Virus genome (UHGV): UHGV-0209830
From: a virus
Direction: 5' to 3' (one strand)
Length of the DNA stretch: 59,500 nt
In this document: positions 18,413-53,618 of the stretch, in pieces
Position numbering within the stretch: position 1 is the stretch's first letter
Layout of the letters: the number at the start of each line of letters is the position of its first letter
Translations under genes and position numbers: made by a program
The notes under the pieces: generated by a model
The model's database searches: none
What the model was told of the DNA's origin: nothing
What the model saw: the letters and a program-made list of their open reading frames with translations, nothing else

Positions 18413-18680
18413 AGTCTTTCAGGGTGGTTTTAGAACTTAAAAAATCTTGAACCAAAGATGCACCAATACACTACTAATTTGGTGCACCTTTACATCCTTT
18501 TTGGTTCCAATTGTGTACCATTTGTCATTAATTTACTTATGCGCAAAAGTGGGCTTCATGAAAAAGCTCATTATTGAAATAACGATAGAAAGCAATTTCT
18601 AATCAACTAGTGGTTGTCAGCCTATTCGGCTTATAAGATCATACGCTGTTATACGTTTTTTACGCTTTGAGGAATCCACA

Positions 18681-20342
18681 ATGAGTGAGGCAGAAGCCCG
18701 CCCGACTAACTTTATTCGTCAGATCATCGATGAAGATCTGGCAAGTGGTAAGCACACCACAGTACATACCCGTTTCCCGCCGGAACCGAATGGCTATCTG
18801 CATATTGGTCATGCGAAATCTATCTGCCTGAACTTCGGGATCGCCCAGGACTATAAAGGCCAGTGCAACCTGCGTTTCGACGACACTAACCCGGTAAAAG
18901 AAGATATCGAGTACGTCGAGTCGATTAAAAACGACGTTGAATGGTTAGGTTTTCACTGGTCTGGTAACGTCCGTTACTCCTCCGATTATTTTGATCAGCT
19001 CCACGCCTATGCTGTTGAACTGATCAACAAAGGCCTGGCGTATGTTGACGAACTGACGCCGGAACAGATCCGCGAATACCGCGGCACCCTGACGCAGCCG
19101 GGTAAAAACAGCCCGTACCGCGATCGCAGCGTTGAAGAGAACCTGGCGCTGTTCGAAAAAATGCGTGCCGGTGGTTTTGAAGAAGGTAAAGCCTGCCTGC
19201 GTGCGAAAATCGACATGGCGTCGCCGTTTATCGTGATGCGCGATCCGGTGCTGTACCGCATTAAGTTTGCTGAACACCACCAGACTGGCAACAAGTGGTG
19301 CATCTACCCGATGTACGACTTCACCCACTGCATCAGCGATGCGCTGGAAGGTATTACGCACTCTCTGTGTACGCTTGAGTTCCAGGACAACCGTCGCCTG
19401 TACGACTGGGTGCTGGACAACATCACCATTCCTGTTCACCCGCGCCAGTACGAATTCTCGCGCCTGAATCTGGAATACACTGTGATGTCCAAGCGTAAGC
19501 TGAACCTGCTGGTGACCGACAAGCACGTTGAAGGCTGGGATGACCCGCGTATGCCGACCATTTCCGGTCTGCGTCGTCGTGGTTACACTGCGGCTTCTAT
19601 TCGTGAGTTCTGCAAACGCATCGGCGTGACCAAGCAGGACAACACCATTGAGATGGCGTCGCTGGAATCCTGCATCCGTGAAGATCTCAACGAAAACGCC
19701 CCGCGCGCAATGGCGGTTATCGATCCGGTGAAACTGGTTATCGAAAACTATCAGGGCGAAGGTGAAATGGTCACCATGCCGAACCATCCGAACAAACCGG
19801 AAATGGGTAGCCGCCAGGTGCCGTTTAGCGGTGAGATTTGGATCGATCGCGCCGATTTCCGCGAAGAAGCTAACAAGCAGTACAAACGTCTGGTGCTGGG
19901 TAAAGAAGTGCGTCTGCGTAATGCTTACGTCATTAAGGCAGAACGCGTCGAGAAAGATGCCGAAGGTAATATCACCACCATCTTCTGTACTTATGACGCC
20001 GACACCTTAAGCAAAGATCCGGCTGATGGTCGTAAAGTCAAAGGTGTTATTCACTGGGTGAGCGCGGCACATGCGCTGCCGGTTGAAATCCGTTTGTATG
20101 ACCGTCTGTTCAGCGTGCCTAACCCAGGTGCTGCGGATGATTTCCTGTCGGTGATTAACCCGGAATCGCTGGTGATCAAACAGGGCTTTGCTGAACCGTC
20201 GCTGAAAGATGCGGTTGCGGGTAAAGCATTCCAGTTTGAGCGTGAAGGTTATTTCTGCCTCGACAGCCGCCATTCCACGGCGGAAAAACCGGTATTTAAC
20301 CGCACCGTTGGGCTGCGTGATACCTGGGCGAAGTTAGGTTAA
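18681..20342 (+). CDS. glnS: Glutaminyl-tRNA synthetase
   Basis: Near-identical to recalled E. coli GlnRS; HIGH motif and VMSKR present; own leader and terminator. Confidence 0.97.
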
Positions 20343-20365: not shown

Positions 20366-20393
20366 GTAAACGCCGCTACTGCGGCGTTTTTTA
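20366..20393. terminator. Bidirectional rho-independent terminator between glnS and dam
   Basis: aaacgccgc-tact-gcggcgttt hairpin flanked by A-run and T-run. Confidence 0.75.
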
Positions 20394-21296
20394 CTTCATT
20401 ATTGCAATTATATCGTTAGCAACTACACGTGTTGACGCCTTGCAGGAAACCGACCGTCTGGCTGCCATATGATGTACTTTAAACCCGTTTCCTTCATATA
20501 GTTCACGGATGCTTGGCGCACCACTATTTGTAATCACTACCTTAGCGCCGCGCTGGTGGGCTTCCACCAATAGAGATACCAGCCGTTTCTGTTCGTCGAA
20601 ACGGAAGCTATTTCCTGAATAACTGGTAAACCCTTCTGTATCCGGCAGCGGTTCATACGGCGGATCGCAAAAAATCACATCGCCTTCACCAGCCGCCTCG
20701 ATGACGCCAGCAAAGTCACCTGATACAAAGGACGTGTTTTTGAGTACGTCATCAGCCAAAAATGCCTCCATCTCTGCATGTGGGAAGTAGGGCGCTTTGT
20801 ATTTGCCATACCCCACGTTGAACTCGCCATTTTGGTTGTACCGCGTTACGCCATTAAAACAGTGCCGATTAAGGTACAAAAAGGCGGCAGCATGATGTAG
20901 CTGGTCATACTTTCCTCTGTTAAATGCCTCACGCACTTCGAGGTAACCGTCAGCGTTGTTGTAATTTTGGAAAAAACTATATGACAGCGTGACGAGCGAA
21001 TGTCCTTCTCGCTGCAATGTCTGATAGAAGTTAATCAGGTCACCGTTAATATCATTAAGCAGGTTGTGGCGAAATCCTGCATTCGTAAATACAGAACCGC
21101 CACCAACGAACGGTTCTATTAACCGCTTGCCGTGTGGTAGATGCTCAAGCACTGTAGGCAACTCTGAGAATTTACCGCCTACCCATTTGAAGATCGGACG
21201 CTCATATTCATCCGGAGTCCGAATGGTGCGCATATAGCTAATTTCAGCCATCGTATCCTGTTTTTCTATGGCTATGCTTGCTATAGATTTACTCAT
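20391..21296 (-). CDS. dam: DNA adenine (N6) methyltransferase, Dam family
   Basis: KWVGGK, FVGGGSVF and DPPY motifs; track ORF 20391..21392 trimmed to MSKS start just after the upstream stop. Confidence 0.9.
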   Translation of the reverse strand: MSKSIASIAIEKQDTMAEISYMRTIRTPDEYERPIFKWVGGKFSELPTVLEHLPHGKRLIEPFVGGGSVFTNAGFRHNLLNDINGDLINFYQTLQREGHSLVTLSYSFFQNYNNADGYLEVREAFNRGKYDQLHHAAAFLYLNRHCFNGVTRYNQNGEFNVGYGKYKAPYFPHAEMEAFLADDVLKNTSFVSGDFAGVIEAAGEGDVIFCDPPYEPLPDTEGFTSYSGNSFRFDEQKRLVSLLVEAHQRGAKVVITNSGAPSIRELYEGNGFKVHHMAARRSVSCKASTRVVANDIIAIMK

Positions 21297-21969
21297 AGAG
21301 CACCCCCTTATTCGCTTCGAAAACTGCCTTTGCGAATCCATGTGGAGTAGCACTTCGAAAATTAGCCCTGTCAGGCCCTGGTGGCGCGGCATGGATTCTG
21401 TTATCTGGCTTGCCTAATGATTCGTCCATTAGGGCATCAGGCATGACAAAGCCCTGGCCGCTCCAGAGGCATGTTTTTTTGGTGTAGTTATCTTCCTGAC
21501 AATATGCAGTGAAGAAGTAAGGGTGAAAGATGTGATCTGGCTTACGCCAGAATGTCGATATTTTGCTGACCGGATTTTCAATCATGTACGGACAACCGAT
21601 CATCTTTGCAATGTCATAACACTGCCAGACAACCTGCATTGCTTTGAACTGGAAAACCGGATCTTTATTAGCCTTGTCCGAAAACCAGCGCGCGCCGGAA
21701 ACAGCCAGGTCAGTACACGGTGGGAACCCGGCCAGAAACACGATGCGCTGCAAATTCTTACGGAGAAAAGCGTATACTTCATCGCTATCGATGATCGCAC
21801 TAATACGCGTCAGAACGGCACCTGATTGCATCCGCTCGTCACTGGTCGATAAGTGCTGTGGATCGACGATAGCGGCATCGACACCGTATTCCAGCCAGGG
21901 GGCAACCATTGCCCCCGTAAAATCACACAGACTCACAACAAGCGGTCGGTTATTATCGTTCTGCTTCAC
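21289..21969 (-). CDS. Cytosine-C5 methyltransferase-like protein
   Basis: GFPPC motif (C5-MTase motif IV-like); track start overlaps rdgC and is probably over-extended; start uncertain. Confidence 0.55.
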   Translation of the reverse strand: MKQNDNNRPLVVSLCDFTGAMVAPWLEYGVDAAIVDPQHLSTSDERMQSGAVLTRISAIIDSDEVYAFLRKNLQRIVFLAGFPPCTDLAVSGARWFSDKANKDPVFQFKAMQVVWQCYDIAKMIGCPYMIENPVSKISTFWRKPDHIFHPYFFTAYCQEDNYTKKTCLWSGQGFVMPDALMDESLGKPDNRIHAAPPGPDRANFRSATPHGFAKAVFEANKGVLYE

Positions 21970-22858
21970 CGCCAATAGCCTCCACCAGCGCGTTAAACAG
22001 TGCAGATAATTCGCCCGTAAAGAGCACGAAATCAGCATCAAATCGTTGTGCTACATCCTCCCGGTCGATATCGTCGTTCTGGTCATAGAGATCATCACAG
22101 AATGTCAGGGCTTTGATACTCATATCATCGTTGACTCTGAACGACGCGCGGTCCATCCAGTTAATTGCAACGGTCGTAGCTACTTTCCCCGCCTCAATGT
22201 GAGACATAATCTCGTCGGACTGTAGATCAACTTTGTTGCAGCGAACGGCACCACCATTATCGAGCAGACCCTTTAATGTGGCGTCTTCACCTGCTGTAAA
22301 TCCGGCAGGGAAGCTTTTTTTAAACCACTCGGTCATTGTAATTTCCAGCGGTTCGCGTGGTGTGAATGGAATGACAGGCAGGCTACCGAGCGATTTTCGC
22401 AATAAAGCCAGCTGGTCCTCTGCCTTTTTGGCGCTGCTTGCCTCAACGAATACCAGATGGTTGCTGCGGTCGATCAGGATTTTTGCGAGTGATTTTCTCG
22501 TGAAAGCACGAGGAAGAAGAGAGTGAAGCACTTCATCCTTCAGCGAATCTTTTTCGGTCTTCTTCAGCTTTCTGTCTTGCTCTTCTTCAAGTTTCAGGAT
22601 TTTTTTCTGTAACTCTTCTTTGAGTACTTGAGAAGGCAGGATTTTTTCCTCTCGTTTATGCTGCATCAGAAGAAAACCCTGGTATTCATGGGTGAGGTTG
22701 TCGCCAAGAATTGGGGTCCAACCAGCTTTAGCCATATCCTGAGAACCGCATGGGGTAAACACAAACTTGCTAAGGGCTGCATTTACTACTGCGGTATCCC
22801 AGTTAACTTCGCGTGAAAGACGATAGATGAAGATATTTTTGAAAGCGACTGATCTCAT
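21953..22858 (-). CDS. rdgC: Recombination-associated protein RdgC
   Basis: YRLSRE, FTPCGSQDMAK, KKTEKDSLKDEVLHSLLPRAF, SAKKAEDQLALLRKSLGSLPV match recalled E. coli RdgC. Confidence 0.9.
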   Translation of the reverse strand: MRSVAFKNIFIYRLSREVNWDTAVVNAALSKFVFTPCGSQDMAKAGWTPILGDNLTHEYQGFLLMQHKREEKILPSQVLKEELQKKILKLEEEQDRKLKKTEKDSLKDEVLHSLLPRAFTRKSLAKILIDRSNHLVFVEASSAKKAEDQLALLRKSLGSLPVIPFTPREPLEITMTEWFKKSFPAGFTAGEDATLKGLLDNGGAVRCNKVDLQSDEIMSHIEAGKVATTVAINWMDRASFRVNDDMSIKALTFCDDLYDQNDDIDREDVAQRFDADFVLFTGELSALFNALVEAIGGEAER

Positions 22859-29721: not shown

Positions 29722-30345
29722 ATGAAGGATGGTGTAGTGAAGTTAAGGGCTTTAGGGGCCGCGCTCGCGGCTATGTTGGGATGCGTATCTGCTAATACTG
29801 CCAATGCAACTGCGTTACCTGCACAATTCAGGGCAGGGCAGCAGGTTATGAATAACGCTGGTGGAGATCATTCACAAGCGGCCATTATGGACTTTTGCAA
29901 GAGGGAGGGCATTCCATTACGGCCTGTTGGAACTCAGTTTATTGGTAAAACTGACTTTTGCGTTTTTGCATATACAGCATATCTGACGGACAAAGCTATA
30001 ACAAAAACAGGTTATTCAACCAAAGATACTCTTTCCAGATTAAGTCAGGGATGGCAGCAATTCGAAGTGTATCGCCAGCAAGGATTAGGTGAGTTATTGC
30101 AACCTCTTTTTATGCTTGCGTTGGTGCCAGAGGGGCAGCAATTTTTGGTTAAAAAGGGAATGCTTCGCCAAAGTGATATTGCCGGGTTCGATAGCATGAT
30201 GGCTTATGAGCGCAAACTAACCGAGCAGCGAAATAAAAAACCATCTGCTTCATGTGTGCAAAGTAAAACAGCAGAATACAGTGCAGTAGCCGGGCCTTTA
30301 GCCAAACAAATGGCAGAGCAATGGTGTAAAAAATACGGGCAATAA
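29722..30345 (+). CDS. Secreted/periplasmic hypothetical protein (207 aa)
   Basis: N-terminal signal peptide. Confidence 0.5.
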   Translation: MKDGVVKLRALGAALAAMLGCVSANTANATALPAQFRAGQQVMNNAGGDHSQAAIMDFCKREGIPLRPVGTQFIGKTDFCVFAYTAYLTDKAITKTGYSTKDTLSRLSQGWQQFEVYRQQGLGELLQPLFMLALVPEGQQFLVKKGMLRQSDIAGFDSMMAYERKLTEQRNKKPSASCVQSKTAEYSAVAGPLAKQMAEQWCKKYGQ

Positions 30346-30365
30346 GTTACGCAGCGGAGGCAGAA

Positions 30366-30758
30366 TTGAAAAGATTGGCTATTGCTTTACTGGCGTCTTT
30401 CCCTTTGATCGCGAGCGCCGGAAATTTACAAGTTAAGTGCGGTCGGTTTGATATAAAAATCTATCCAGATGCCATATTTCTGAATGGGAATAAGGTTGAT
30501 AACGCACACCGAAAAACTGAATCTGACGTAATGAGCTATGTGTTCCAGGAGTATGCGGAGATGGGGGGAACTTACACGCTGTACTCGCTGGATGTTCCTT
30601 CTCGCGGTGATATGACATTATCCCATCAATGGCAGAACGCCGATGGCGAAGCTCTGCGCGAGGTTAAAACAGAAAAATGTGGCACTTTCCATTCTTTTAA
30701 AGGGAAAGCGCCAAATGTTAAATCTGTGCTTGAAAAACAGCGCGCAGGTGAGCTTTAA
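30366..30758 (+). CDS. Secreted/periplasmic hypothetical protein (130 aa)
   Basis: Signal peptide MKRLAIALLASFPLIASA. Confidence 0.5.
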   Translation: MKRLAIALLASFPLIASAGNLQVKCGRFDIKIYPDAIFLNGNKVDNAHRKTESDVMSYVFQEYAEMGGTYTLYSLDVPSRGDMTLSHQWQNADGEALREVKTEKCGTFHSFKGKAPNVKSVLEKQRAGEL

Positions 30759-31145
30759 ACACCTTTAACCACGGAGATGCCGTTCCCTGCACGATAGCGG
30801 CGGGGAACGGAATTCTCCATCAGGTCACGAATTACTCCCGCCTCATGTAGTTCCACTGTTTCCCAGTATCTGTTTGTCACCAATTACGCCCCGTTCCGCC
30901 AGGGGAAGGTATGAACGAGCTTCTGCTTCGGTTGCAGCCATGACGCAGATATACAGGTGTTTTTGGCAGGAATAGAAACGCCAGATAAATTCAGAATGAG
31001 TTGGGGTGGGGATAGTAGCGATATTGGCAGCCTCCTTTGACTAAGTTAAGGAGCTACCGCGTGAGGTTCCAATTCCGGCACCCGTTTTTCTAAGGTGCCG
31101 TAGAAATATACCCCACGATAAGGCCAGGGCGCAAAAGTCAGTATT

Positions 31146-33417: not shown

Positions 33418-33763
33418 AGGTTTAACGCCCGCACAACTGGCAGAGCGTAACGCTGAATTACTCAGGATTACCCAGGAAAAAGCCTTCCACATACTCGAAC
33501 GATTAGAGACGCTCTCTACGGAGGAGGAGATATCCCCGGAGATGCTGGTTGAGTGCAGCCGTGTGATATTGCGTCGCAAGAACGACATCGCGCGGCTGAC
33601 ATCTGGCGCACTATCCGTATCAGCCAGTCCAACGCTTTATTGCAGCTTCTGCAACAAATCCCAGCACACCGTTAAAAAGTTAATTGCCGGGGACAACGCT
33701 TTCATATGCAACGAGTGCGTGAAAGATTGCAACAACATTATCCAGGAAGATCAAAGGGAATAA
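33407..33763 (+). CDS. Protein with C-terminal ClpX-type C4 zinc-binding domain
   Basis: [38 protein letters not shown] closely matches recalled E. coli ClpX N-terminal ZBD. Confidence 0.7.
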
Positions 33764-33765
33764 GC

Positions 33766-34461
33766 ATGAAATTTTCCAAATTTTCTGAGTTGGTGAATCG
33801 TATTTTGTCCAACAACCACAGCCATCGTCGCGATATGGATGTAACGATCGTTGTTCATTCGCCTGGCAGCATTGGTTCAACACCTTCAGTTGAGGTTCAG
33901 TCAATTCACGCTGGTTTTGATTGGGATTCCGGGAAAGTGCTGATTTTCCCAGCACAGCCACTGACCACGCTAACACCAGAACAGATTACTGATATTACTG
34001 ATAGTGTGCGCAAAGGTCAGTCCTGGCACGCATATCAGGAATACAAGAAGCATAAAGAGCAGTTGGAAAAATTATCGATTGAACTTGATGCCGCAAAACA
34101 GCGCATTGCAGAGCTGGAGGGTAATTGCGCGGCGCTGGCGGCGGAGAATGCGGGAATAAAGTCTGCAATTCCAGAATCACGGGATATTGAGGATGACAAT
34201 GACAATATGGATGACGTATCTCTCGCGGAAGACTTCGGGTTCAATCATGCAATAGAACGGATGAGGAGACAGATACCTGAAACGCCAACCACTGATGCTT
34301 TCCTGGCTGAAGTCCGGGCGCAGGGATTGGAGATGTTTGCACAGAAATGTAACTCAAAATCCGAACAGTCGCTTGCATCTGATATACGCGATAACTGGAA
34401 ACTACTCGGTGAACATGCAACTGACTTTGCCGATGAGCTTCGAAGAGGAAGCAGCAAGTGA
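33766..34461 (+). CDS. Hypothetical protein with coiled coil (about 231 aa)
   Basis: Track ORF 33706..34461 trimmed to MKFSKF; shares ETPTTDAFLAE motif with ORF 37345..38043. Confidence 0.45.
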   Translation: MKFSKFSELVNRILSNNHSHRRDMDVTIVVHSPGSIGSTPSVEVQSIHAGFDWDSGKVLIFPAQPLTTLTPEQITDITDSVRKGQSWHAYQEYKKHKEQLEKLSIELDAAKQRIAELEGNCAALAAENAGIKSAIPESRDIEDDNDNMDDVSLAEDFGFNHAIERMRRQIPETPTTDAFLAEVRAQGLEMFAQKCNSKSEQSLASDIRDNWKLLGEHATDFADELRRGSSK

Positions 34462-37058: not shown

Positions 37059-37358
37059 ATGAGTCAAGGTAATGGTGACGGAGCTGCAAAGTGCAGAATC
37101 TCCACTTGTTTGATTAATGACAAAAAAATAGAACCGTGCGCGGCGTTGGCACAATCCCTGGAGCAGGATGCTGAATACACGACGCGGAAAGGTCTGCTGA
37201 AATACAAAATCTATAACCATGAATTAATTCATTCACAAGACCTGATCATGCTGCGGTCAGGCGAGCTTTCTAAATCGCCGATTCGAATTTCATTTTGCCC
37301 GTTCTGTGGTGAAAGTCTGAAAACGTGGGAAGCGGAGGCAACCAGTGATCAAAATTAA
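37059..37358 (+). CDS. Hypothetical protein (99 aa)
   Basis: ORF track. Confidence 0.4.
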   Translation: MSQGNGDGAAKCRISTCLINDKKIEPCAALAQSLEQDAEYTTRKGLLKYKIYNHELIHSQDLIMLRSGELSKSPIRISFCPFCGESLKTWEAEATSDQN

Positions 37359-38043
37359 CTATCAAGAACTGCGCGAGGCGGCGGAACAGGCAACGCAAGA
37401 TGAATGGGTAGCATATATTTTGCCGGGTCATAACGGCATTTATCCTGCGCGCACGTCTGAGGGTAGGCATTGCGGATACTTTATTGACTGGCCTGGCATT
37501 GATGGACAAAGGAATGCTGGTGCTAATGCCCGTTATATCGCGGCTATCCCACCAAAAGTTGCGCTGGCACTCCTGGGCGAAATTAAGCGCCTGGAGGACA
37601 CAAATATTGATGCTATGTGCCGAATAGCACCGCTTGAGACTAAGCTCGCGGCTCTGGTGGCAGAGAACGCCGGGCTGAAACTCGCAATGGCTGTAACTCT
37701 TAATCATGTGTCGGTCACGGATGCAGGGCAGGCCGGAGTTGCTGCAATGATAATCAACGATGCTCTGCACCACAGCGAAACCCCAGCCACCGATGCTTTT
37801 CTGGCTGAAGGGAAGACTGAAGCACGCAAGGAAGGCGCTTATTTTGTGGCGAACAGAATGTTGGCAGCCTGGAAAGCTGGTTTTATTGATGATACTGCGA
37901 AGAACGCCGCGGATATTGCCCGGATGATCCTTACCTCTACTGAGTTTATGGCTAATGCGCCGGAAGGCGATTTTGATCGCTCATTCTCTGATGGCGTTCT
38001 CGAAGATATCGCCGAACAGCTTCGTAAAGGAGTCATCCAATGA
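37345..38043 (+). CDS. Ea22/Ead-like protein
   Basis: N-terminus MIKINYQELREAAEQA and coiled coil; paralogous to next ORF. Confidence 0.4.
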   Translation: MIKINYQELREAAEQATQDEWVAYILPGHNGIYPARTSEGRHCGYFIDWPGIDGQRNAGANARYIAAIPPKVALALLGEIKRLEDTNIDAMCRIAPLETKLAALVAENAGLKLAMAVTLNHVSVTDAGQAGVAAMIINDALHHSETPATDAFLAEGKTEARKEGAYFVANRMLAAWKAGFIDDTAKNAADIARMILTSTEFMANAPEGDFDRSFSDGVLEDIAEQLRKGVIQ

Positions 38044-38753
38044 GCAAGATTGATTATCAAAAGCTTCGTGAAATCGCTGAAAAAACAAAAATTGCTGGTG
38101 AAGCACCTGTAATGCCTTTCGATCAGCGAATTAATGCGCTTAACGATTTTATGAAGCACTTTTCGCCAGATATCGCGCTGGCATTGTTGGATGAATGGGA
38201 AAGAAACCAGCAATACATAAAACGCCGCGATCAGGAGAACGAGGATATTGCGCTAACGGTAGGGAAGCTGCGCGTTGAGCTGGAAGGCAAAGACAGCAAA
38301 ATAGCCAATCTTACCGCCGAACGCGATGCTCTTCGTGAAGGTGAGATGGGCGACGCTAGGCATAGCAACACACGGGCCGCAGCTGATATCTACTTCCAAC
38401 TGGTCGAGGAGTGCGAAATTCCTGCTGGCGGTTCTCTGGTCGAGTACGTTGACGATATGCGCGAGAAGCTGGAAGCCGCAGAGAAGCGCATTGCAGAACT
38501 GGAAAGCAACGAAGTCCGTGAAGTCGGAAATCAGTTTCTTGTTGTTCGCCATCCTGGGAAAACTCCTGTCATCAAGCACTGCACTGGTGACCTGGAAGAG
38601 TTTCTGCGGAAGTTAATCGAACAAGACCCGTTAGTAACTATCGACATCATTACGCATCGCTATTACGGGATTGGCGGTCAATGGGTTCAGGATGCAGTTG
38701 AGTATCTGCATATGATGTCTGACGCTGGCATTCGCATCAAAGGAGGTGAGTAA
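38040..38753 (+). CDS. Ea22/Ead-like protein
   Basis: N-terminus MSKIDYQKLREIAEK; coiled coil. Confidence 0.4.
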   Translation: MSKIDYQKLREIAEKTKIAGEAPVMPFDQRINALNDFMKHFSPDIALALLDEWERNQQYIKRRDQENEDIALTVGKLRVELEGKDSKIANLTAERDALREGEMGDARHSNTRAAADIYFQLVEECEIPAGGSLVEYVDDMREKLEAAEKRIAELESNEVREVGNQFLVVRHPGKTPVIKHCTGDLEEFLRKLIEQDPLVTIDIITHRYYGIGGQWVQDAVEYLHMMSDAGIRIKGGE

Positions 38754-39116: not shown

Positions 39117-39325
39117 TGGCTATTGCCGCAAGTTACACCATGCATCTCTATTGTGACTGCCGCCAGTGTACGGAAGGTGTATATCCAGTGCCAGACTTCG
39201 GAGAGTATATCGGCACGTCATGGGCTGGTTGTGCAAAAGAGGCGCGTAAGGATGGCTGGCGAATAAGCAAAGACAAAACACGTGCTTTTGCGCCTGGGCA
39301 TAAAGTTTTGAGGAGTAACAAATGA
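39117..39325 (+). CDS. Small Cys-containing hypothetical protein
   Basis: Internal ATG MAIAASYT of track ORF 39044..39325. Confidence 0.3.
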
Positions 39326-40023
39326 CCACTATTACCAGAGAACAAGCTCTGAAAATTATTGAGGCAGCCGATGAGGTTATTAGTGCGCTTGCCGGAACTA
39401 ACGAGGATGTTCACCCTGGTAGCGATAACATGCTACGCCTGTGGGATGACCTGAATGACCGTTACGCGCCGCCGGAAGTTGTGCGTGAGCTGGCACGGAT
39501 TGCACTGGCATCGCTGGAAGCAGAGCCTATTGGTGAAGTTTCAGAGAAGCGACACGGCCTTGTTATGGATGGAACGGTAGACCTTGGCGGGAAATCAACT
39601 TATCGCATCATTAAGGGAGAAAAAGCGATGAAGTTGTTGCCGTTGGGGACGAAGTTTTATATCGCACCGCCAGCGCCGGTAATACAGGCTGATGTCGCGC
39701 AAGCAATTGAAAATCTCAAGCAGAAATTAGTGGAATGCAATCGCTATAACTACTGCGCAGATGCAGTTAAGGGCGTCGAGGATGCCTGCCGCGCAGTCAT
39801 GCTTCAGTCCGGAAACTTTCGGGAAAGCGACGTTATTACACCAGATCATCATAAACAAGCCGAGAAAAGTGGCCTGGAAAGGTGTCACCTTGAGACGGCA
39901 TTAAACATTAAGCCGGGGCATACGCTTGGCATTATTGATGCACTATTGGTTCATAAGATGGCCAGGGCTTTATTGCCGCTGGTGGCTGAAAAGCATGAGG
40001 CGGACCATGCCAACGAAAGCTGA
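39322..40023 (+). CDS. Hypothetical protein (233 aa)
   Basis: ORF track. Confidence 0.5.
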   Translation: MTTITREQALKIIEAADEVISALAGTNEDVHPGSDNMLRLWDDLNDRYAPPEVVRELARIALASLEAEPIGEVSEKRHGLVMDGTVDLGGKSTYRIIKGEKAMKLLPLGTKFYIAPPAPVIQADVAQAIENLKQKLVECNRYNYCADAVKGVEDACRAVMLQSGNFRESDVITPDHHKQAEKSGLERCHLETALNIKPGHTLGIIDALLVHKMARALLPLVAEKHEADHANES

Positions 40024-46201: not shown

Positions 46202-46235
46202 CTAACTTTAAATAATGCCAATTATTTAAAGTTAT
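46202..46235. other. lox-like recombination site (13-bp inverted arms around 8-bp spacer)
   Basis: ctaactttaaata-atgccaat-tatttaaagttat; arms share TAACTT and TA with recalled loxP arm ATAACTTCGTATA; about 170 bp upstream of cre. Confidence 0.65.
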
Positions 46236-47511: not shown

Positions 47512-49020
47512 TTATATATCCAGATCCGGCATTTCGATATCCGCCAGAACCTGATCTCGGAAAGTTGCCATTTCGGCACCAATATCTTCATTAGCAGGCA
47601 CATAGTCCACCAGCATAGTGAAGCAGTAGGTATCCCATCGGTCAGGCGATTTGATGTTTAGCTTTTGCCGCATGTGCTCTTTGCGCATCATCGCCATTTT
47701 CCCTTCTTCATTCAGTAAAAAGGGGATTTTTGACGCTTGCTCTGCCGTTTTAGGGTCACTGTCTATCCGCATACGCCCTGACTTTATGGCATCACGCGCC
47801 ATGATATTTGCGTAGGCACGCTGATTAACAAATCGCTCCCTGTCTTTGTTCGCAAACATGGGTTTTCCCCACCGAATACGTACCGGGTTCGCACCACGAC
47901 GCACCAACTGCGCACACGTATCAGAACCAAAACCATCAGCATCAACCGCGATTGTTATATTCGGGTATTTTTCCGGCGTACATTCGTTATATATGAAGTC
48001 AGCAAAGGCCAATGGGTCCATAGTGCCAGGCATCTCCATTACCTTAAAGTTAACAACGCGCCGCTTATCCCTGTGACCTGATACCTTGCAGATGTTGAGG
48101 ACCGACTTATCTCGCCCATTACCAACGTCAGCCGTTGCCACCCATCCCCAGTTTTTCTCCAACAACACCTTGCGGCGAGCAGAGCGATCGCATTCATCAC
48201 GACCAAGCAAATAGCCGTTAATTTCTCGTGGGAACTGACCAAGCACCTTGACCATGTACTCAATAGAATCGCGCCCGCCATATTCCAGAAGCTTCTCCTT
48301 GATGAATTGTGGTGTGACGAACGGTGATTCTTCCGAGTTAAGAACAATTGCTGTCCAGATCCCTTTCGGGTTGTCTGGGGTTTTTGCTCGAGAATGGTGC
48401 GAATCGTAGAAATAACCACTTGGCCTTGTTGGCTGGGATAGCATCAACATCCGGTTATCTTCTTCAGTAAGAGCACCGGTCATTACGCCGATCGCCTTAT
48501 CAGATATACCAGATGCTTCATCCAGAATTAGAAGCAAATGTGCCGCGTGTTCCCCCGCCAGCGCTTCTTCGTTGCCGAGTCGATAACCTTTGCAGAGAAC
48601 TTCCCAAATCCCCTTACGGGAGCGCTCATAAAACATGGTGTCAGAGAGGACAAAATAGGTCTGCAACCACCCATGACGCTTAACTGCATTCGCCCAATAC
48701 TGTTTAACGTATTTGAATACGCCTGTTTTTACCTGGCCTATCTTGTTAGCAACAATGATGACACGGGCATCGGGGAACAGGATCATAAAAATCAACAGCA
48801 ACATCGCGGTAAGGGACGACTTCCCCGTTCCGTGTCCGGACGTGACGGTAGTCCTACTCCCCGTTTCCTGTACGGACTGAATGATCTGCTGCTGCTGCGG
48901 GGAGGGGAACATCCCAAAAATATCGACAACAGCCTGGGTAAAGTTGTAGCGGTATTTGATTACCATATCGCGCCAGCGTGGATCTCTGGTGACGCATTTA
49001 ACCTTGCGCCCGCCAGCCAT
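47512..49020 (-). CDS. pacB: Terminase large subunit (PacB-like)
   Basis: Walker A GHGTGKS, large-terminase size, directly downstream of pacA-like gene. Confidence 0.8.
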   Translation of the reverse strand: MAGGRKVKCVTRDPRWRDMVIKYRYNFTQAVVDIFGMFPSPQQQQIIQSVQETGSRTTVTSGHGTGKSSLTAMLLLIFMILFPDARVIIVANKIGQVKTGVFKYVKQYWANAVKRHGWLQTYFVLSDTMFYERSRKGIWEVLCKGYRLGNEEALAGEHAAHLLLILDEASGISDKAIGVMTGALTEEDNRMLMLSQPTRPSGYFYDSHHSRAKTPDNPKGIWTAIVLNSEESPFVTPQFIKEKLLEYGGRDSIEYMVKVLGQFPREINGYLLGRDECDRSARRKVLLEKNWGWVATADVGNGRDKSVLNICKVSGHRDKRRVVNFKVMEMPGTMDPLAFADFIYNECTPEKYPNITIAVDADGFGSDTCAQLVRRGANPVRIRWGKPMFANKDRERFVNQRAYANIMARDAIKSGRMRIDSDPKTAEQASKIPFLLNEEGKMAMMRKEHMRQKLNIKSPDRWDTYCFTMLVDYVPANEDIGAEMATFRDQVLADIEMPDLDI

Positions 49021-50384
49021 TAATCATCCTCCGGCGGTTCTATCGCGATATCATCATCTCCGGCGTCATACCCTGCATCAGATGCATCATAATCACCGTA
49101 AATTTCAGCCGTTGCCGAAGGGTCAATATCCAGCTCTTCGTCGTTGGCCTCGAATTCTCCAGCTTTACGCTCGCCATTGCGGTCATAATCTCCGCACCCC
49201 AATTCTTCAACAATGGTTGCCACATCCGCCCGGCGCTCTGCCAGCCATTGCGGATGGTTAGCCTGAAGCGTTGCAAACTCCCTTGCCTCTTTGTCCAGCT
49301 GTTCATCATCAACATCATTGACGTCAGAAACAGGTGGTTCGAGAAGAGTGATAGCTTTCGCCGCGCGCGCCGCGAGGATAGCCGGGACGCTGACCCCCTG
49401 GCGCTCGATGTATTCAGCAACACCGATATCATCCAGTTCCTCGCGCTCACGCATACGTATAGCGGCGGCGATAACTCTGGCTGCGCGTGCGTCAGCGCCA
49501 ATGCGATATTCAATCTCTTTGCCACGCTGTTCGGCCTGTAGGCGTGCTAATTCGAGTTTTTCTCTGGCCTCAGCCTCTTTGAATGCTTGCTGGCGAGCGC
49601 TCTGACGAAGCTTTTCATCCCCCTGTCGCAGCTTTTGTTCGGACTGATATATAGCTGCCAACCTACTGATAAAATCATTCATGTAGTAGGCCGCGTCACT
49701 GATTAGACCGAGAAGGCGCTGCCCAGGGTGCATTCCTTCTGGCTCTTTATCGCCCAGGGTGTCTATTTCCGCCTGTAGACGTTCGGCCTCCTGATCAACA
49801 ATGCTTTGATACTGAAGTGCGCGCTCTTGCGCCATTTGAATTGCTAACCGCAGGTGTTCTTCTGCGCCGTTCTTCATCATATCGCGAGCAACATTCGTAG
49901 TTGGCAATGTGGCACGCTGCACAGCACCGTCAGGGATCATTGCAGAAGATCCCTCAATTTTTGGGGCGCTTTTATCTTCTTCGGGGATCATTTTCGCCAT
50001 TTTTTCGCGCAATGATCTCCTGACGGATTCTTTTATCTCATTGTTATTATTTGAATTATTTTCATGATCCGAAGTTTTCTTTCTCGGCATACTTCGGAAA
50101 GAACCTGCGCCCTGCGAATTGTCAATTTCTGTAAATTTTGTTTTTTCTGCACCCTCTTCCTGCTTTTTTGTTGCTCTTCCTGCCCGTTTTTTTTCAGGTG
50201 ATTTGGTGCTTTTTTTTGTTGTCTTTACCTGCGACCGCACCTCATTTTTTTTCATATTGAGATGCTTTCTGGCTGTATTGAAGCTAAGGCCATGCTCCTC
50301 ACAGTATTCCTTTACAGTGATCCCTTTTTCTTCACGCAACGCTATAAAGCGGGCGCGGTGCTCCTCCCAATTAACCAGACTCAT
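49020..50384 (-). CDS. pacA: Terminase small subunit / pac-recognition protein (PacA-like)
   Basis: Synteny with pacB, acidic C-terminus, GATC cluster inside the gene. Confidence 0.55.
   Translation of the reverse strand: MSLVNWEEHRARFIALREEKGITVKEYCEEHGLSFNTARKHLNMKKNEVRSQVKTTKKSTKSPEKKRAGRATKKQEEGAEKTKFTEIDNSQGAGSFRSMPRKKTSDHENNSNNNNEIKESVRRSLREKMAKMIPEEDKSAPKIEGSSAMIPDGAVQRATLPTTNVARDMMKNGAEEHLRLAIQMAQERALQYQSIVDQEAERLQAEIDTLGDKEPEGMHPGQRLLGLISDAAYYMNDFISRLAAIYQSEQKLRQGDEKLRQSARQQAFKEAEAREKLELARLQAEQRGKEIEYRIGADARAARVIAAAIRMREREELDDIGVAEYIERQGVSVPAILAARAAKAITLLEPPVSDVNDVDDEQLDKEAREFATLQANHPQWLAERRADVATIVEELGCGDYDRNGERKAGEFEANDEELDIDPSATAEIYGDYDASDAGYDAGDDDIAIEPPEDD
49925..50075. other. 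Candidate pac site: five GATC-containing hexamers within about 135 bp inside pacA
   Basis: GATC at about 49935, 49948, 49986, 50014, 50066 in TGATC(C/T)-like contexts. Confidence 0.4.
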
Positions 50385-50773
50385 AAAGCAACACCACGCT
50401 TTTTAACGGCGGCATTCCACAGCTTATTCGCCATGTCCACCAGCTCTCGTTGCTCTTTTCGCGCCTGTTCGACTGATTTCCTGCTACAGTTTTTAACCAG
50501 TAAACTGCCGTATTCAGGGGTTCGCCCACGCACCTTGAACTGATATCCGTTCAGGCCATGCAACCAGTATTTTCGTGGGTAAACGCGATCATCAAGCTCA
50601 CAGATTGCCCTGCTTGAACGAACAAAATGACGAATGATGTTAGTTACACTTACTCGTGAGACATGGAGATGAGGGTATTTTTCTTTGGCGAGAATGGTAA
50701 TTTCAGTGACTGTCAGATAGCAGTCAGCCCTAATCATGATATCCGCAATTTCTGCGCTGCTGATTTGTTCCAT
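50381..50773 (-). CDS. Hypothetical protein (130 aa); Lpa-like late-promoter activator candidate by synteny
   Basis: Immediately upstream of pacA with operator-like palindrome upstream; no sequence-level confirmation. Confidence 0.35.
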   Translation of the reverse strand: MEQISSAEIADIMIRADCYLTVTEITILAKEKYPHLHVSRVSVTNIIRHFVRSSRAICELDDRVYPRKYWLHGLNGYQFKVRGRTPEYGSLLVKNCSRKSVEQARKEQRELVDMANKLWNAAVKKRGVAL

Positions 50774-50882: not shown

Positions 50883-51274
50883 TACCAGCGAGACAAACGA
50901 ACAACATGTTTCACTTTTGCGATCCACTTTCCGCGACAACTATTGATTACGGCCTGTGCCAGCTTCAAATTGGCTTCAAAATCAGCCTTACTACCATCTG
51001 ACTCCACCAGCATTCCGCCATCTATTTCTGGTAAACATAGATAATCCTGCTCAACCTGCAGCGGCATTGATGGCTCTCTGAATGGCGTTACTTGCTCTGC
51101 TTTCCAGCGAAAGCTAACCCTCATCCCCCTGGTGGTCATTACCAGATAGCCTGTTATAGTGCTTTTATGGCCCACATCAGTACGCGTGGCATTGCATGAC
51201 ACGATCTTACAGTTAGCGATAGACCACTCCATATTGGTGGCCTGTTGAGTGCTTAATTTGGTAGTCCCGTACAT
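50882..51274 (-). CDS. Hypothetical protein (130 aa)
   Basis: ORF track. Confidence 0.45.
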   Translation of the reverse strand: MYGTTKLSTQQATNMEWSIANCKIVSCNATRTDVGHKSTITGYLVMTTRGMRVSFRWKAEQVTPFREPSMPLQVEQDYLCLPEIDGGMLVESDGSKADFEANLKLAQAVINSCRGKWIAKVKHVVRLSRW

Positions 51275-51849
51275 CAGAAAGCCTCCCAGTCAGTCGCGAT
51301 AATATCCACACCAGTTGCAAACCAGTCTGTCTGCGCCTGTAAATCACCATTCATCATTACCAGGCGAGGCATCACCATCACATCGCACCCTTCCACAATA
51401 TCGAATGCCTCTTCCGGCAAGAATTCGAAGAGCTTTTCTTTGCTGCCAATGCTGCCACGGAACATCGATATATAGCTCCCTTTAGGCCATGATGTCCGCC
51501 GGGCATCAAGCCCTTTCATCATCCAGTAAAAAGCCGAGGAAAAAGGGATATTCTTTTTGCCAATGATTACATTATTCGCTTCTGTGTACTTCAGGAACTT
51601 AACTAACCTTACCATTGACTCGGATAACGCAACGTATGGCTCATGATTGATTGCTGACACGCTTACACCGTGCAATCCAACGCTTACCACTGTCATATCG
51701 CCGCTCTGTGCGGTTTCGATATTGACGCCTTTGCGAACTAATGAGGCGTAAAGTTCCTCTCGCTTTTGGGTCCAGCGTTCCCGCTTCCCTATGAAGTCAC
51801 TCAAAATGAGATCTTCTTCTGCATATGCGTTATCGTTCGCCATTAACAT
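51274..51849 (-). CDS. Hypothetical protein (191 aa)
   Basis: ORF track; strong RBS aaaaaggag. Confidence 0.5.
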   Translation of the reverse strand: MLMANDNAYAEEDLILSDFIGKRERWTQKREELYASLVRKGVNIETAQSGDMTVVSVGLHGVSVSAINHEPYVALSESMVRLVKFLKYTEANNVIIGKKNIPFSSAFYWMMKGLDARRTSWPKGSYISMFRGSIGSKEKLFEFLPEEAFDIVEGCDVMVMPRLVMMNGDLQAQTDWFATGVDIIATDWEAF

Positions 51850-52378: not shown

Positions 52379-52532
52379 AGATTACTGTTAATTCCGCTTA
52401 CGCTTTTTGCCAGGACCGCGTAAGGCTTTTGCTGCTTGCTCGACCCCATATGCAACCACCAGCAGAAATAAAAATGTCCACCAAGGGTTCTTGTCGGCAA
52501 ACGTCCAAAATTCCATCATGTTCTCTATTTGG

Positions 52533-53360
52533 TTATTTCACCGGAACAAACGGTACAGCGGTATTACTGGTCATATACTGCGGTAGCGTTCCGTTCCATT
52601 TGTTGATCGCTTCCAACTCCATAACGCCGGGGTTCTGGCGCAGAGCTTCACCGCGTAAACGAATGGCATCAGCTTCAGCCTGGGCTTTTGTGCGAATGGC
52701 ATCGGCCTGTCCGGCAGCTTCTGCGCGCAGCATGTTGGCTTCTGCTTCGCGTTGCTTGACTTCCTGCTCGCGTTGCAGAGTTTTCTGGTTCGCCGTGACT
52801 TTGGCATTAATGCTGTCGATAACGGTTGGCGGGTACTCCGGCTTGCCCACATATGAGAGGCTCATTACCTGAATACCGATGGGCGTCATTTCTTCCTGGA
52901 TGTCTTTAAGAGCTGCATCCAGTAGTTCAGACTTGCCACCGTCGATAAATTTGTCGGTGGTCATTTTGCTGGCCAGTCGGTTAAGTGCGTCGGCAATCTT
53001 CTGGCGCAGGTCGGTGTCGGTAATGTCATCCACGCCTTTGCGGTAGGTCTGAAATACAGTTGTGACTTTTGCCGGATCAACCTTGTAAGCTACACCAATG
53101 TGGTAACCAATTGTTGTCCCGTCGCTCATTTGGAAGCTGAACGGATCATCATAGGTCTTCATTTGCTTAAAGGTCGGGAAGATATAAACTTCTGTGTTCC
53201 AGCCTGTCCAGTAGCGACCAACGCCAACTACTTCGCCGACACCTTTATCATCCCCCAGCTTATTTACTTTGATCCCTACATTGCCTGGTTCTACCCGGTC
53301 GCATCCGGTCAGACATAAAGAACCAAAAATAATCGCTGCACTAATCAACGTTTTTTTCAT
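52533..53360 (-). CDS. SPFH/band-7 domain lipoprotein
   Basis: Lipobox LTGC signal; SPFH-like core followed by A/E/Q-rich coiled coil. Confidence 0.55.
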   Translation of the reverse strand: MKKTLISAAIIFGSLCLTGCDRVEPGNVGIKVNKLGDDKGVGEVVGVGRYWTGWNTEVYIFPTFKQMKTYDDPFSFQMSDGTTIGYHIGVAYKVDPAKVTTVFQTYRKGVDDITDTDLRQKIADALNRLASKMTTDKFIDGGKSELLDAALKDIQEEMTPIGIQVMSLSYVGKPEYPPTVIDSINAKVTANQKTLQREQEVKQREAEANMLRAEAAGQADAIRTKAQAEADAIRLRGEALRQNPGVMELEAINKWNGTLPQYMTSNTAVPFVPVK

Positions 53361-53578
53361 TAATCAATTTCCTGGATTTTTTTGCGAAAAAAGACTACTG
53401 CAAAAGCCGGGTAAATGAGCGCGAGAAGGACTCCCAACAATACAAGTATTGTGCTGTCAGATGAGATCATATTTGGCAAAAGCCAAACATACAGAACCAT
53501 TGACACAATCAAACAGAGGACGACATAAATATATAGCCGCACCCATAGCGTTCGACATTTGTTCGGATTGTTCTGCAT
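53360..53578 (-). CDS. Small two-TM membrane protein (72 aa)
   Basis: ORF track; stop overlaps start of SPFH gene. Confidence 0.45.
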   Translation of the reverse strand: MQNNPNKCRTLWVRLYIYVVLCLIVSMVLYVWLLPNMISSDSTILVLLGVLLALIYPAFAVVFFRKKIQEID

Positions 53579-53618
53579 CCTCTCACTCCATTGTTTAACG
53601 AATAAAAAAGCTGCGGTG

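Follow-up and report, generated by a model that had tools for sequence, protein, structure and literature searches.

UHGV-0209830 is a viral genome of 59,500 nt (hereafter the window) that represents a D6-like phage-plasmid of the P1 family, and its pacA gene, which encodes a small-terminase-like subunit of the packaging enzyme (pacase), contains five copies of the Dam target GATC within 135 bp. We propose that this cluster is probably the recognition part of the D6-like element's pac site, and very probably a diverged relative of the P1 pac site rather than an element of a new kind. Identity to phage D6 is about 97% over most of the window, which for the greater part runs collinear with the D6 genome at 90-98% identity, and its pacA is 98.6% identical in DNA to the gene annotated as pacA in Escherichia phage D6 (in both D6 records). 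The GATCs begin at plus-strand positions 50066, 50014, 49986, 49948 and 49935 (the cluster spans 49935-50069), corresponding to pacA nt 316, 368, 396, 434 and 447, respectively. The gene, the cluster and its parts, with sites numbered in the direction of pacA, are as follows:

49020-50384, minus strand: pacA, an open reading frame (ORF) of 454 aa for a small-terminase-like pacase subunit; the GATC cluster lies in its variable, basic linker-coding part
49934-50070, minus strand: candidate pac recognition region with five GATC-containing repeats, pacA nt 316-450 of 1365
50064-50070, plus strand: site 1, ATGATCC; in pacA sense GGATCAT, codons S-D-H
50034-50046, minus strand: A/T-rich block TAACAATGAGATA between sites 1 and 2; partly conserved, two mismatches to the integration host factor (IHF) consensus
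50011-50019, plus strand: site 2, AATGATCTC; in pacA sense GAGATCATT, codons R-S-L (AATGATCCC, codons G-S-F, in relatives)
49985-49991, minus strand: site 3, ATGATCC in pacA sense, codons M-I-P
49946-49953, plus strand: site 4, AAGATCCC; in pacA sense GGGATCTT, codons G-S (ATGATCCC or ATGATCTC in relatives)
49934-49940, minus strand: site 5, ATGATCC in pacA sense, codons M-I-P

A preliminary description of this DNA had pointed to five GATC-containing hexamers in about 135 bp inside a pacA-like gene as a candidate pac site, and both the count and the location were borne out. The hexamers are TGATCC at three sites, TGATCT at one and AGATCC at one, and the distances between successive sites, from site 1 to site 5, are 52, 28, 38 and 13 bp. 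No tighter group of three, four or five GATCs occurs in the window, and the density of the cluster (37 per kb versus 3.5 per kb) is 10.5 times the window average, the comparison that the description itself had named as a check. GATC is not over-represented in the window as a whole (209 observed versus 229 expected), and the cluster is improbable (P=1.3e-4) only if its 135-bp stretch had been named in advance. It is only through its location and its conservation that the cluster exceeds chance. The second-densest GATC stretch of the window (18637-19245, seven sites in 404 bp) lies at the 5' end of a phage-borne glutaminyl-tRNA synthetase gene (18681-20342).

Conservation of the five sites in the D6 group

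Three deep lineages of the D6 group were compared, one formed by the window and D6, one by a sequence from E. marmotae (L007) and one by sequences from S. dysenteriae, HX138 and E. fergusonii (L008-L010). The pacA genes of these lineages are only 70-75% identical in pairwise comparisons, and GATC is present at exactly nt 316, 368, 396, 434 and 447 in all three. The cluster sits in the most variable part of the gene; across nt 136-500, 47% of alignment columns and 13% of 4-mers are invariant among the three lineages. Synonymous third positions in conserved codons are invariant in 34% of cases, and the degenerate position shows no change in any of the five GATCs. A control over the whole shared genome showed that the E. 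fergusonii plasmid keeps 47% of the 154 aligned GATCs of the window (44% in similarly diverged segments), and the pacA GATCs at nt 589, 681, 1032, 1086, 1147 and 1261 are each found in a single lineage. In the IMG/VR database, all five sites are kept in 22 of 24 distinct D6-group pacA sequences. The Salmonella plasmid pSa1423-90k (L006) was left out of these counts, as numerous indels and 18 in-frame stops interrupt its copy of pacA, which is either a degraded gene or the product of a low-accuracy assembly. We also considered a local recombination tract as the cause of the conservation and rejected it; the sequence that separates the sites has diverged further than the gene on average (47% versus 58% invariant columns), and a recent tract therefore does not explain the pattern. 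Together, these comparisons indicate that purifying selection keeps the five GATC motifs at the level of DNA.

The five sites share more than GATC. Each is a version of the longer, oriented motif AATGATCCC, in which, over all sites and sequences, A occurs at 97% and T at 84% ahead of GATC, and C at 83% and C at 80% after it, and a repeat search independently recovered this motif as direct and inverted repeats. In pacA sense the motif is reversed at sites 1, 2 and 4 and forward at sites 3 and 5. The forward form encodes M-I-P at both of its sites; the reverse form, GGATCAT, encodes D-H at site 1, and sites 2 and 4 use a different register that gives G-S. At these two sites the residues vary between lineages (R-S or G-S) and GATC stays. 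Since one motif recurs in different frames and on both strands, the constraint is on DNA and not on protein. The 7-mer ATGATCC itself is no more frequent in the window than expected (9 observed versus 8.7 expected), and three of its nine copies lie in the cluster.

Relation to the P1 pac site and to other PacA clades

The P1 pac site is 161 bp long and is composed of seven TGATCA/G Dam-site hexamers in two groups (HEX4 and HEX3), an IHF site and a cleavage site; its cleavage is reported to be methylation-dependent, and synonymous mutation of the hexamers cut the P1 titre about 9-fold (PMC10028697). In the P1 model, pacase recognises the repeats, binds hemimethylated sites without cutting them and cuts fully methylated ones, which starts headful packaging; the detail of this model comes in part from Sternberg & Coulby and Skorupski et al. 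as summarised in PMC10028697. The P1 record places the hexamers at pacA nt 195-351, with the IHF site and cut points separating their two groups at nt 256-285 (the cut points at nt 276-285), and this region is the experimentally mapped pac site.

The window cluster resembles P1 pac in several respects. Like P1 pac, it falls within the 5' third of pacA, a homologue of the P1 gene, upstream of pacB and within the same layout of lpa, pacA, pacB, c1 and a recombination site; it consists of several short repeated elements that each hold a Dam GATC; both elements carry a Dam-family methylase; and the distance to the recombination site is similar (lox, ~4.0 kb in P1; rox, ~3.8 kb here). On these grounds, namely its location, a core of GATC repeats, the Dam gene that goes with it and the order of genes, the cluster would work like P1 pac. 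The two also differ. P1 pac (161-162 bp) has two tight arms of 4 + 3 hexamers, spaced 7-15 bp apart, that flank ~90 bp containing the IHF site and the cuts, whereas the window cluster has five asymmetric AATGATCCC-type sites of mixed orientation at the spacings given above, is positioned ~100 nt further into pacA than in P1, and is found in a gene whose product is only 21% identical to P1 PacA. A packaging signal within a small terminase gene is also familiar from other headful phages: in P22 (gene 3), SPP1 (gene 1 region) and Sf6, pac is embedded in the gene whose product recognises it, and the window cluster would share this arrangement. The P22, SPP1 and Sf6 pac sites are not known to be built from Dam targets or to be controlled by methylation, and their small terminases are not known to be related in sequence to PacA.

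GATC-repeat clusters occur in the same stretch of pacA (nt 140-480), which encodes the linker, in every PacA clade that we examined, and the enrichment of GATC within the gene is significant in most of them. We found no experimental test of the GATC clusters of other P1-family pacA genes. The arrangements within nt 140-480 are as follows:

P1: 4 + 3 (+1) TGATCA/G
Pantoea: six to seven TGATCA exactly 12 bp apart, plus two
Serratia: 5 + 3 GATC repeats
Xenorhabdus: 3 + 2 GATC repeats
Leclercia and Citrobacter: smaller GATC sets
IMG/VR sequences L055 and L056 (34% aa identity): D6-type flank TGATCCC/GGGATCA, in a 5 + 1 arrangement
E. hormaechei (56% aa identity): three sites 12 bp apart upstream and five downstream, mostly ATGATCC
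D6 group: upstream arm absent, five downstream sites

The other P1-family clades thus have a tight upstream arm of 3-7 sites at nt 140-260, often exactly 12 bp apart (the Citrobacter freundii pacA, with a single GATC in this stretch, is an exception), together with a downstream group, whereas the D6 group has the downstream group alone, expanded to five. In the E. hormaechei pacA, the upstream arm aligns to a short insertion that is absent from the D6 group. The E. hormaechei clade and L055/L056 share the D6-type flank (ATGATCC or TGATCCC); sequences of the E. hormaechei type (L011, L051 and L053) combine this flank with an upstream arm of three sites 12 bp apart, and L055 and L056 combine it with an upstream arm of five sites at nt 142-226. 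Flank type and arm layout seem, from these combinations, to have evolved separately.

The spacer between sites 1 and 2 is 48 bp long, is A/T-rich and holds TAACAATGAGATA, which resembles the annotated P1 IHF site AAACAAAGAGTTA and may have an IHF-like role. Consensus scans found no match to the IHF consensus WATCAANNNNTTR with one mismatch or fewer inside the cluster. A perfect match, TATCAAAGCATTG, is present at 49799-49811 (minus strand), 125 bp downstream of site 5, and we rejected it as a functional site; it is absent from the other D6-group lineages checked and is therefore treated as probably due to chance. As a separate observation, two D6-like contigs of IMG assembly 2537562191 break inside pacA, one (L054) ending at nt 329 and the other (L043) starting at nt 320; their 10-nt overlap corresponds to about 50056-50065 of the window, just 3' of site 1 in the A/T-rich spacer. 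This break is the only physical discontinuity seen near the cluster and may be due to chance or to assembly.

Several of our results weigh against reading the cluster as a pac site. The raw clustering is by itself weak evidence and is not significant window-wide (P about 0.19-0.24): random placement gave an equally tight five-site cluster somewhere in a window of the same size in 19% of cases and first-order Markov simulation did so in 23.5%, and the cluster alone proves little because comparable clusters arise in about one in five random windows. The P1 hexamer TGATCA/G occurs at none of the five sites on either strand, the spacings do not give a 4 + 3 layout in two arms around a central cleavage region, and the scans at one mismatch or fewer found no conserved IHF consensus in the D6 group, which is also the only clade without a tight upstream arm. 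The cluster is therefore not a strict member of the P1-type pac sites, and its likeness to P1 pac is less close than the preliminary description suggested; as a candidate pac site, it is upheld by the invariance of the five GATCs in three lineages, the single DNA motif and the clusters in every PacA clade examined. Two IMG/VR sequences have each lost one site by a change of GATC to GACC (L034, site 2 at nt 368; L049, site 3 at nt 396) with the pacA ORF intact, and therefore either no single site is indispensable or those copies are impaired. Finally, the D6 GenBank records annotate rox and the genes and no pac site. We found no description of D6 pac in the open full-text literature; the primary D6 papers were outside our reach, so an earlier description is possible.

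Gene neighbourhood and the Dam-family methylase

The identity of pacA is supported by its sequence and by its location, with lpa on one side and pacB on the other. Over its full length the ORF aligns with P1 PacA (21% identity, BLASTP E=4e-11, residues 4-433); it also hits the terminase family phrog_1711 (E=2e-184), with weaker hits to small-terminase families. Gene order in the window is lpa-pacA-pacB-c1-rox-dre, as in P1 (pac-pacB-c1-lox). The neighbouring features and the methylase gene are as follows:

47512-49020, minus strand: pacB, large terminase (phrog_2, terminase large subunit, E=3.4e-40)
50381-50773, minus strand: lpa, late promoter activator (PF25716, E=4e-56), overlapping the start of pacA by 4 nt
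46203-46234, plus strand: rox recombination site, an exact 32-nt match, ~3.8 kb from the cluster and downstream of it in the direction of pacA
20391-21392, minus strand: predicted Dam-family N6-adenine DNA methyltransferase, counterpart of D6 orf63; coordinates are those of the longest ORF, whereas in the D6 annotation the gene begins 32 codons further on

The window pacA has DNA-level matches in 121 PLSDB plasmids, with identities from 99% down to 67%; D6 was the sole match in a tblastn search against phage records, and a scan of genome contigs gave only three P1-like loci.

The Dam methylase that the preliminary description had placed about 29 kb from the cluster is indeed at that distance, and its family is well supported. 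The ORF matches PF02086 (E=1.7e-56, 192 bits versus a cut-off of 22) and TIGR00571 ‘dam’ (247 bits versus 115), the PDB entries closest to it are those of E. coli Dam (2G1P, E=4e-58) and DpnM (E=3e-46), and the DPPY motif is kept. Its score against the E. coli Dam equivalog model is 239 bits, below the cut-off of 441. The ORF thus belongs to the D12 class of Dam methylases, and this family membership suggests specificity for GATC. Within a methyltransferase family of 779 positions, the protein corresponds to the C-terminal part, and the annotation of D6 compares it with the C-terminal half of P1 Dmt. The E. fergusonii plasmid has an intact Dam ORF (85% aa identity), and the E. hormaechei plasmid encodes a fused Dam-family protein of 682 aa adjoining rdgC. 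In the window, a second methyltransferase-like ORF (21289-22041; phrog_757, no Pfam match) overlaps the Dam ORF.

Other segments of the window depart from D6 or carry recognisable domains. A 1.1-kb segment (52520-53612) has no match in D6, which has tciA and tciB at the corresponding place; it contains an ORF for an SPFH/Band 7 protein (52533-53360, minus strand; PF01145, E=8e-31). A Tad2-like domain (Thoeris anti-defence 2; PF11195, E=1.1e-9) is found at the C-terminus of the counterpart of D6 orf6 (51274-51849, minus strand). Two adjoining Ead/Ea22-like ORFs (PF13935) occupy 37345-38753, a stretch that matches D6 only partly, and further short segments without a D6 match lie at 29779-31070, 33750-34442 and 39325-39827.

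Alternative explanations and a model for packaging

The cluster could instead be a regulatory element, sensitive to Dam and SeqA, that times the expression of pacA and pacB or marks replication, with the real pac located elsewhere. Clusters of GATC have regulatory roles at oriC, P1 oriR and the cre promoters, and this explanation would accommodate the absence of the P1-type two-arm layout. We consider it unlikely, however. A promoter scan detected no promoter-like site overlapping the cluster, the conserved AATGATCCC flanks are superfluous for Dam and SeqA and needed by a sequence-specific protein, and the mapped pac site of P1 occupies the corresponding location in that phage. It is less likely still that the cluster is a pac site that works independently of methylation, with GATC simply part of the sequence recognised by pacase and Dam serving anti-restriction or another role. 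The conserved flanks do show recognition beyond GATC, but GATC is the sole invariant core across PacA clades whose flanks differ (TGATCA versus TGATCCC), a Dam gene is present in P1 and in those D6-clade relatives that were checked, and cleavage at P1 pac is itself reported to depend on methylation (PMC10028697).

We regard as very improbable the explanation that the GATCs are kept only for the peptides that they encode in the PacA linker (D-H, G-S and M-I-P), with no cis-acting role for the DNA. In the protein alignment, M-I-P and D-H do stand out as islands of conservation, and a further GATC, at nt 63, falls in the conserved N-terminal domain and is explained in this way; for the cluster, however, protein-level constraint would have to account for one DNA motif that encodes unrelated peptides in three reading registers and both orientations, for GATCs that persist at sites 2 and 4 while the residues change, for degenerate third positions that are invariant in all five GATCs against a 34% background, and for other clades that keep GATC clusters with different peptides. 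Little credence can likewise be given to a chance cluster, or to a decaying, non-working remnant of one arm of an ancestral P1-type pac, for which the frequency of equally tight clusters in random windows (about 20%) and the loss from the D6 group of the upstream arm that its E. hormaechei relative keeps would speak, since the five sites are invariant despite 25-30% divergence (0.13^5, about 4e-5, by a naive estimate) and their joint presence in 22 of the 24 distinct sequences points to continuing selection, not decay.

If the cluster is the recognition part of pac, as we propose, then by analogy with P1 the PacA/PacB pacase would bind the GATC repeats and start headful packaging there, and cleavage would need GATCs methylated on both strands. 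Because of this proposed need, newly replicated, hemimethylated copies would be held uncut until the host Dam and the element's own Dam complete methylation late in infection. The cut would fall in or beside the cluster, possibly within the A/T-rich spacer of 48 bp that separates sites 1 and 2. P1 packages from pac towards lox, and the shared gene order suggests that packaging in the D6-like element would run in the direction of pacA, leftwards in the window, through pacB and c1 to rox, such that rox would fall in the terminal redundancy of the first headful, available for Dre-mediated circularisation.

A P1-like pac in D6 would be expected by a specialist, and the new points are modest: a clade-specific flank, an absent arm and a rule for locating pac across the family. 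More tentatively, the D6 group may use a rearranged pac, in which a single arm with the asymmetric AATGATCCC motif in mixed orientation derives from a two-arm ancestor whose layout would still be seen in the E. hormaechei relative, with clade-specific flanks around a common, methylatable GATC core. If this is true, the packaging specificities of P1 and D6 would be independent, both still under the control of Dam.

The D6 pac candidate adds no new kind of biology. Phage-plasmids of the D6 type are common among E. coli, Salmonella and Shigella, and a known pac site would show where packaging, and any pac-driven transduction, starts in these elements. It would also permit D6-based phagemids that are not packaged by P1, and would provide a second, diverged example in which to study how Dam methylation gates cleavage by a terminase. 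For the PacA terminase family, the comparisons suggest a practical rule, namely that pac may be located by the clustering of GATC repeats in the part of pacA that encodes the linker.

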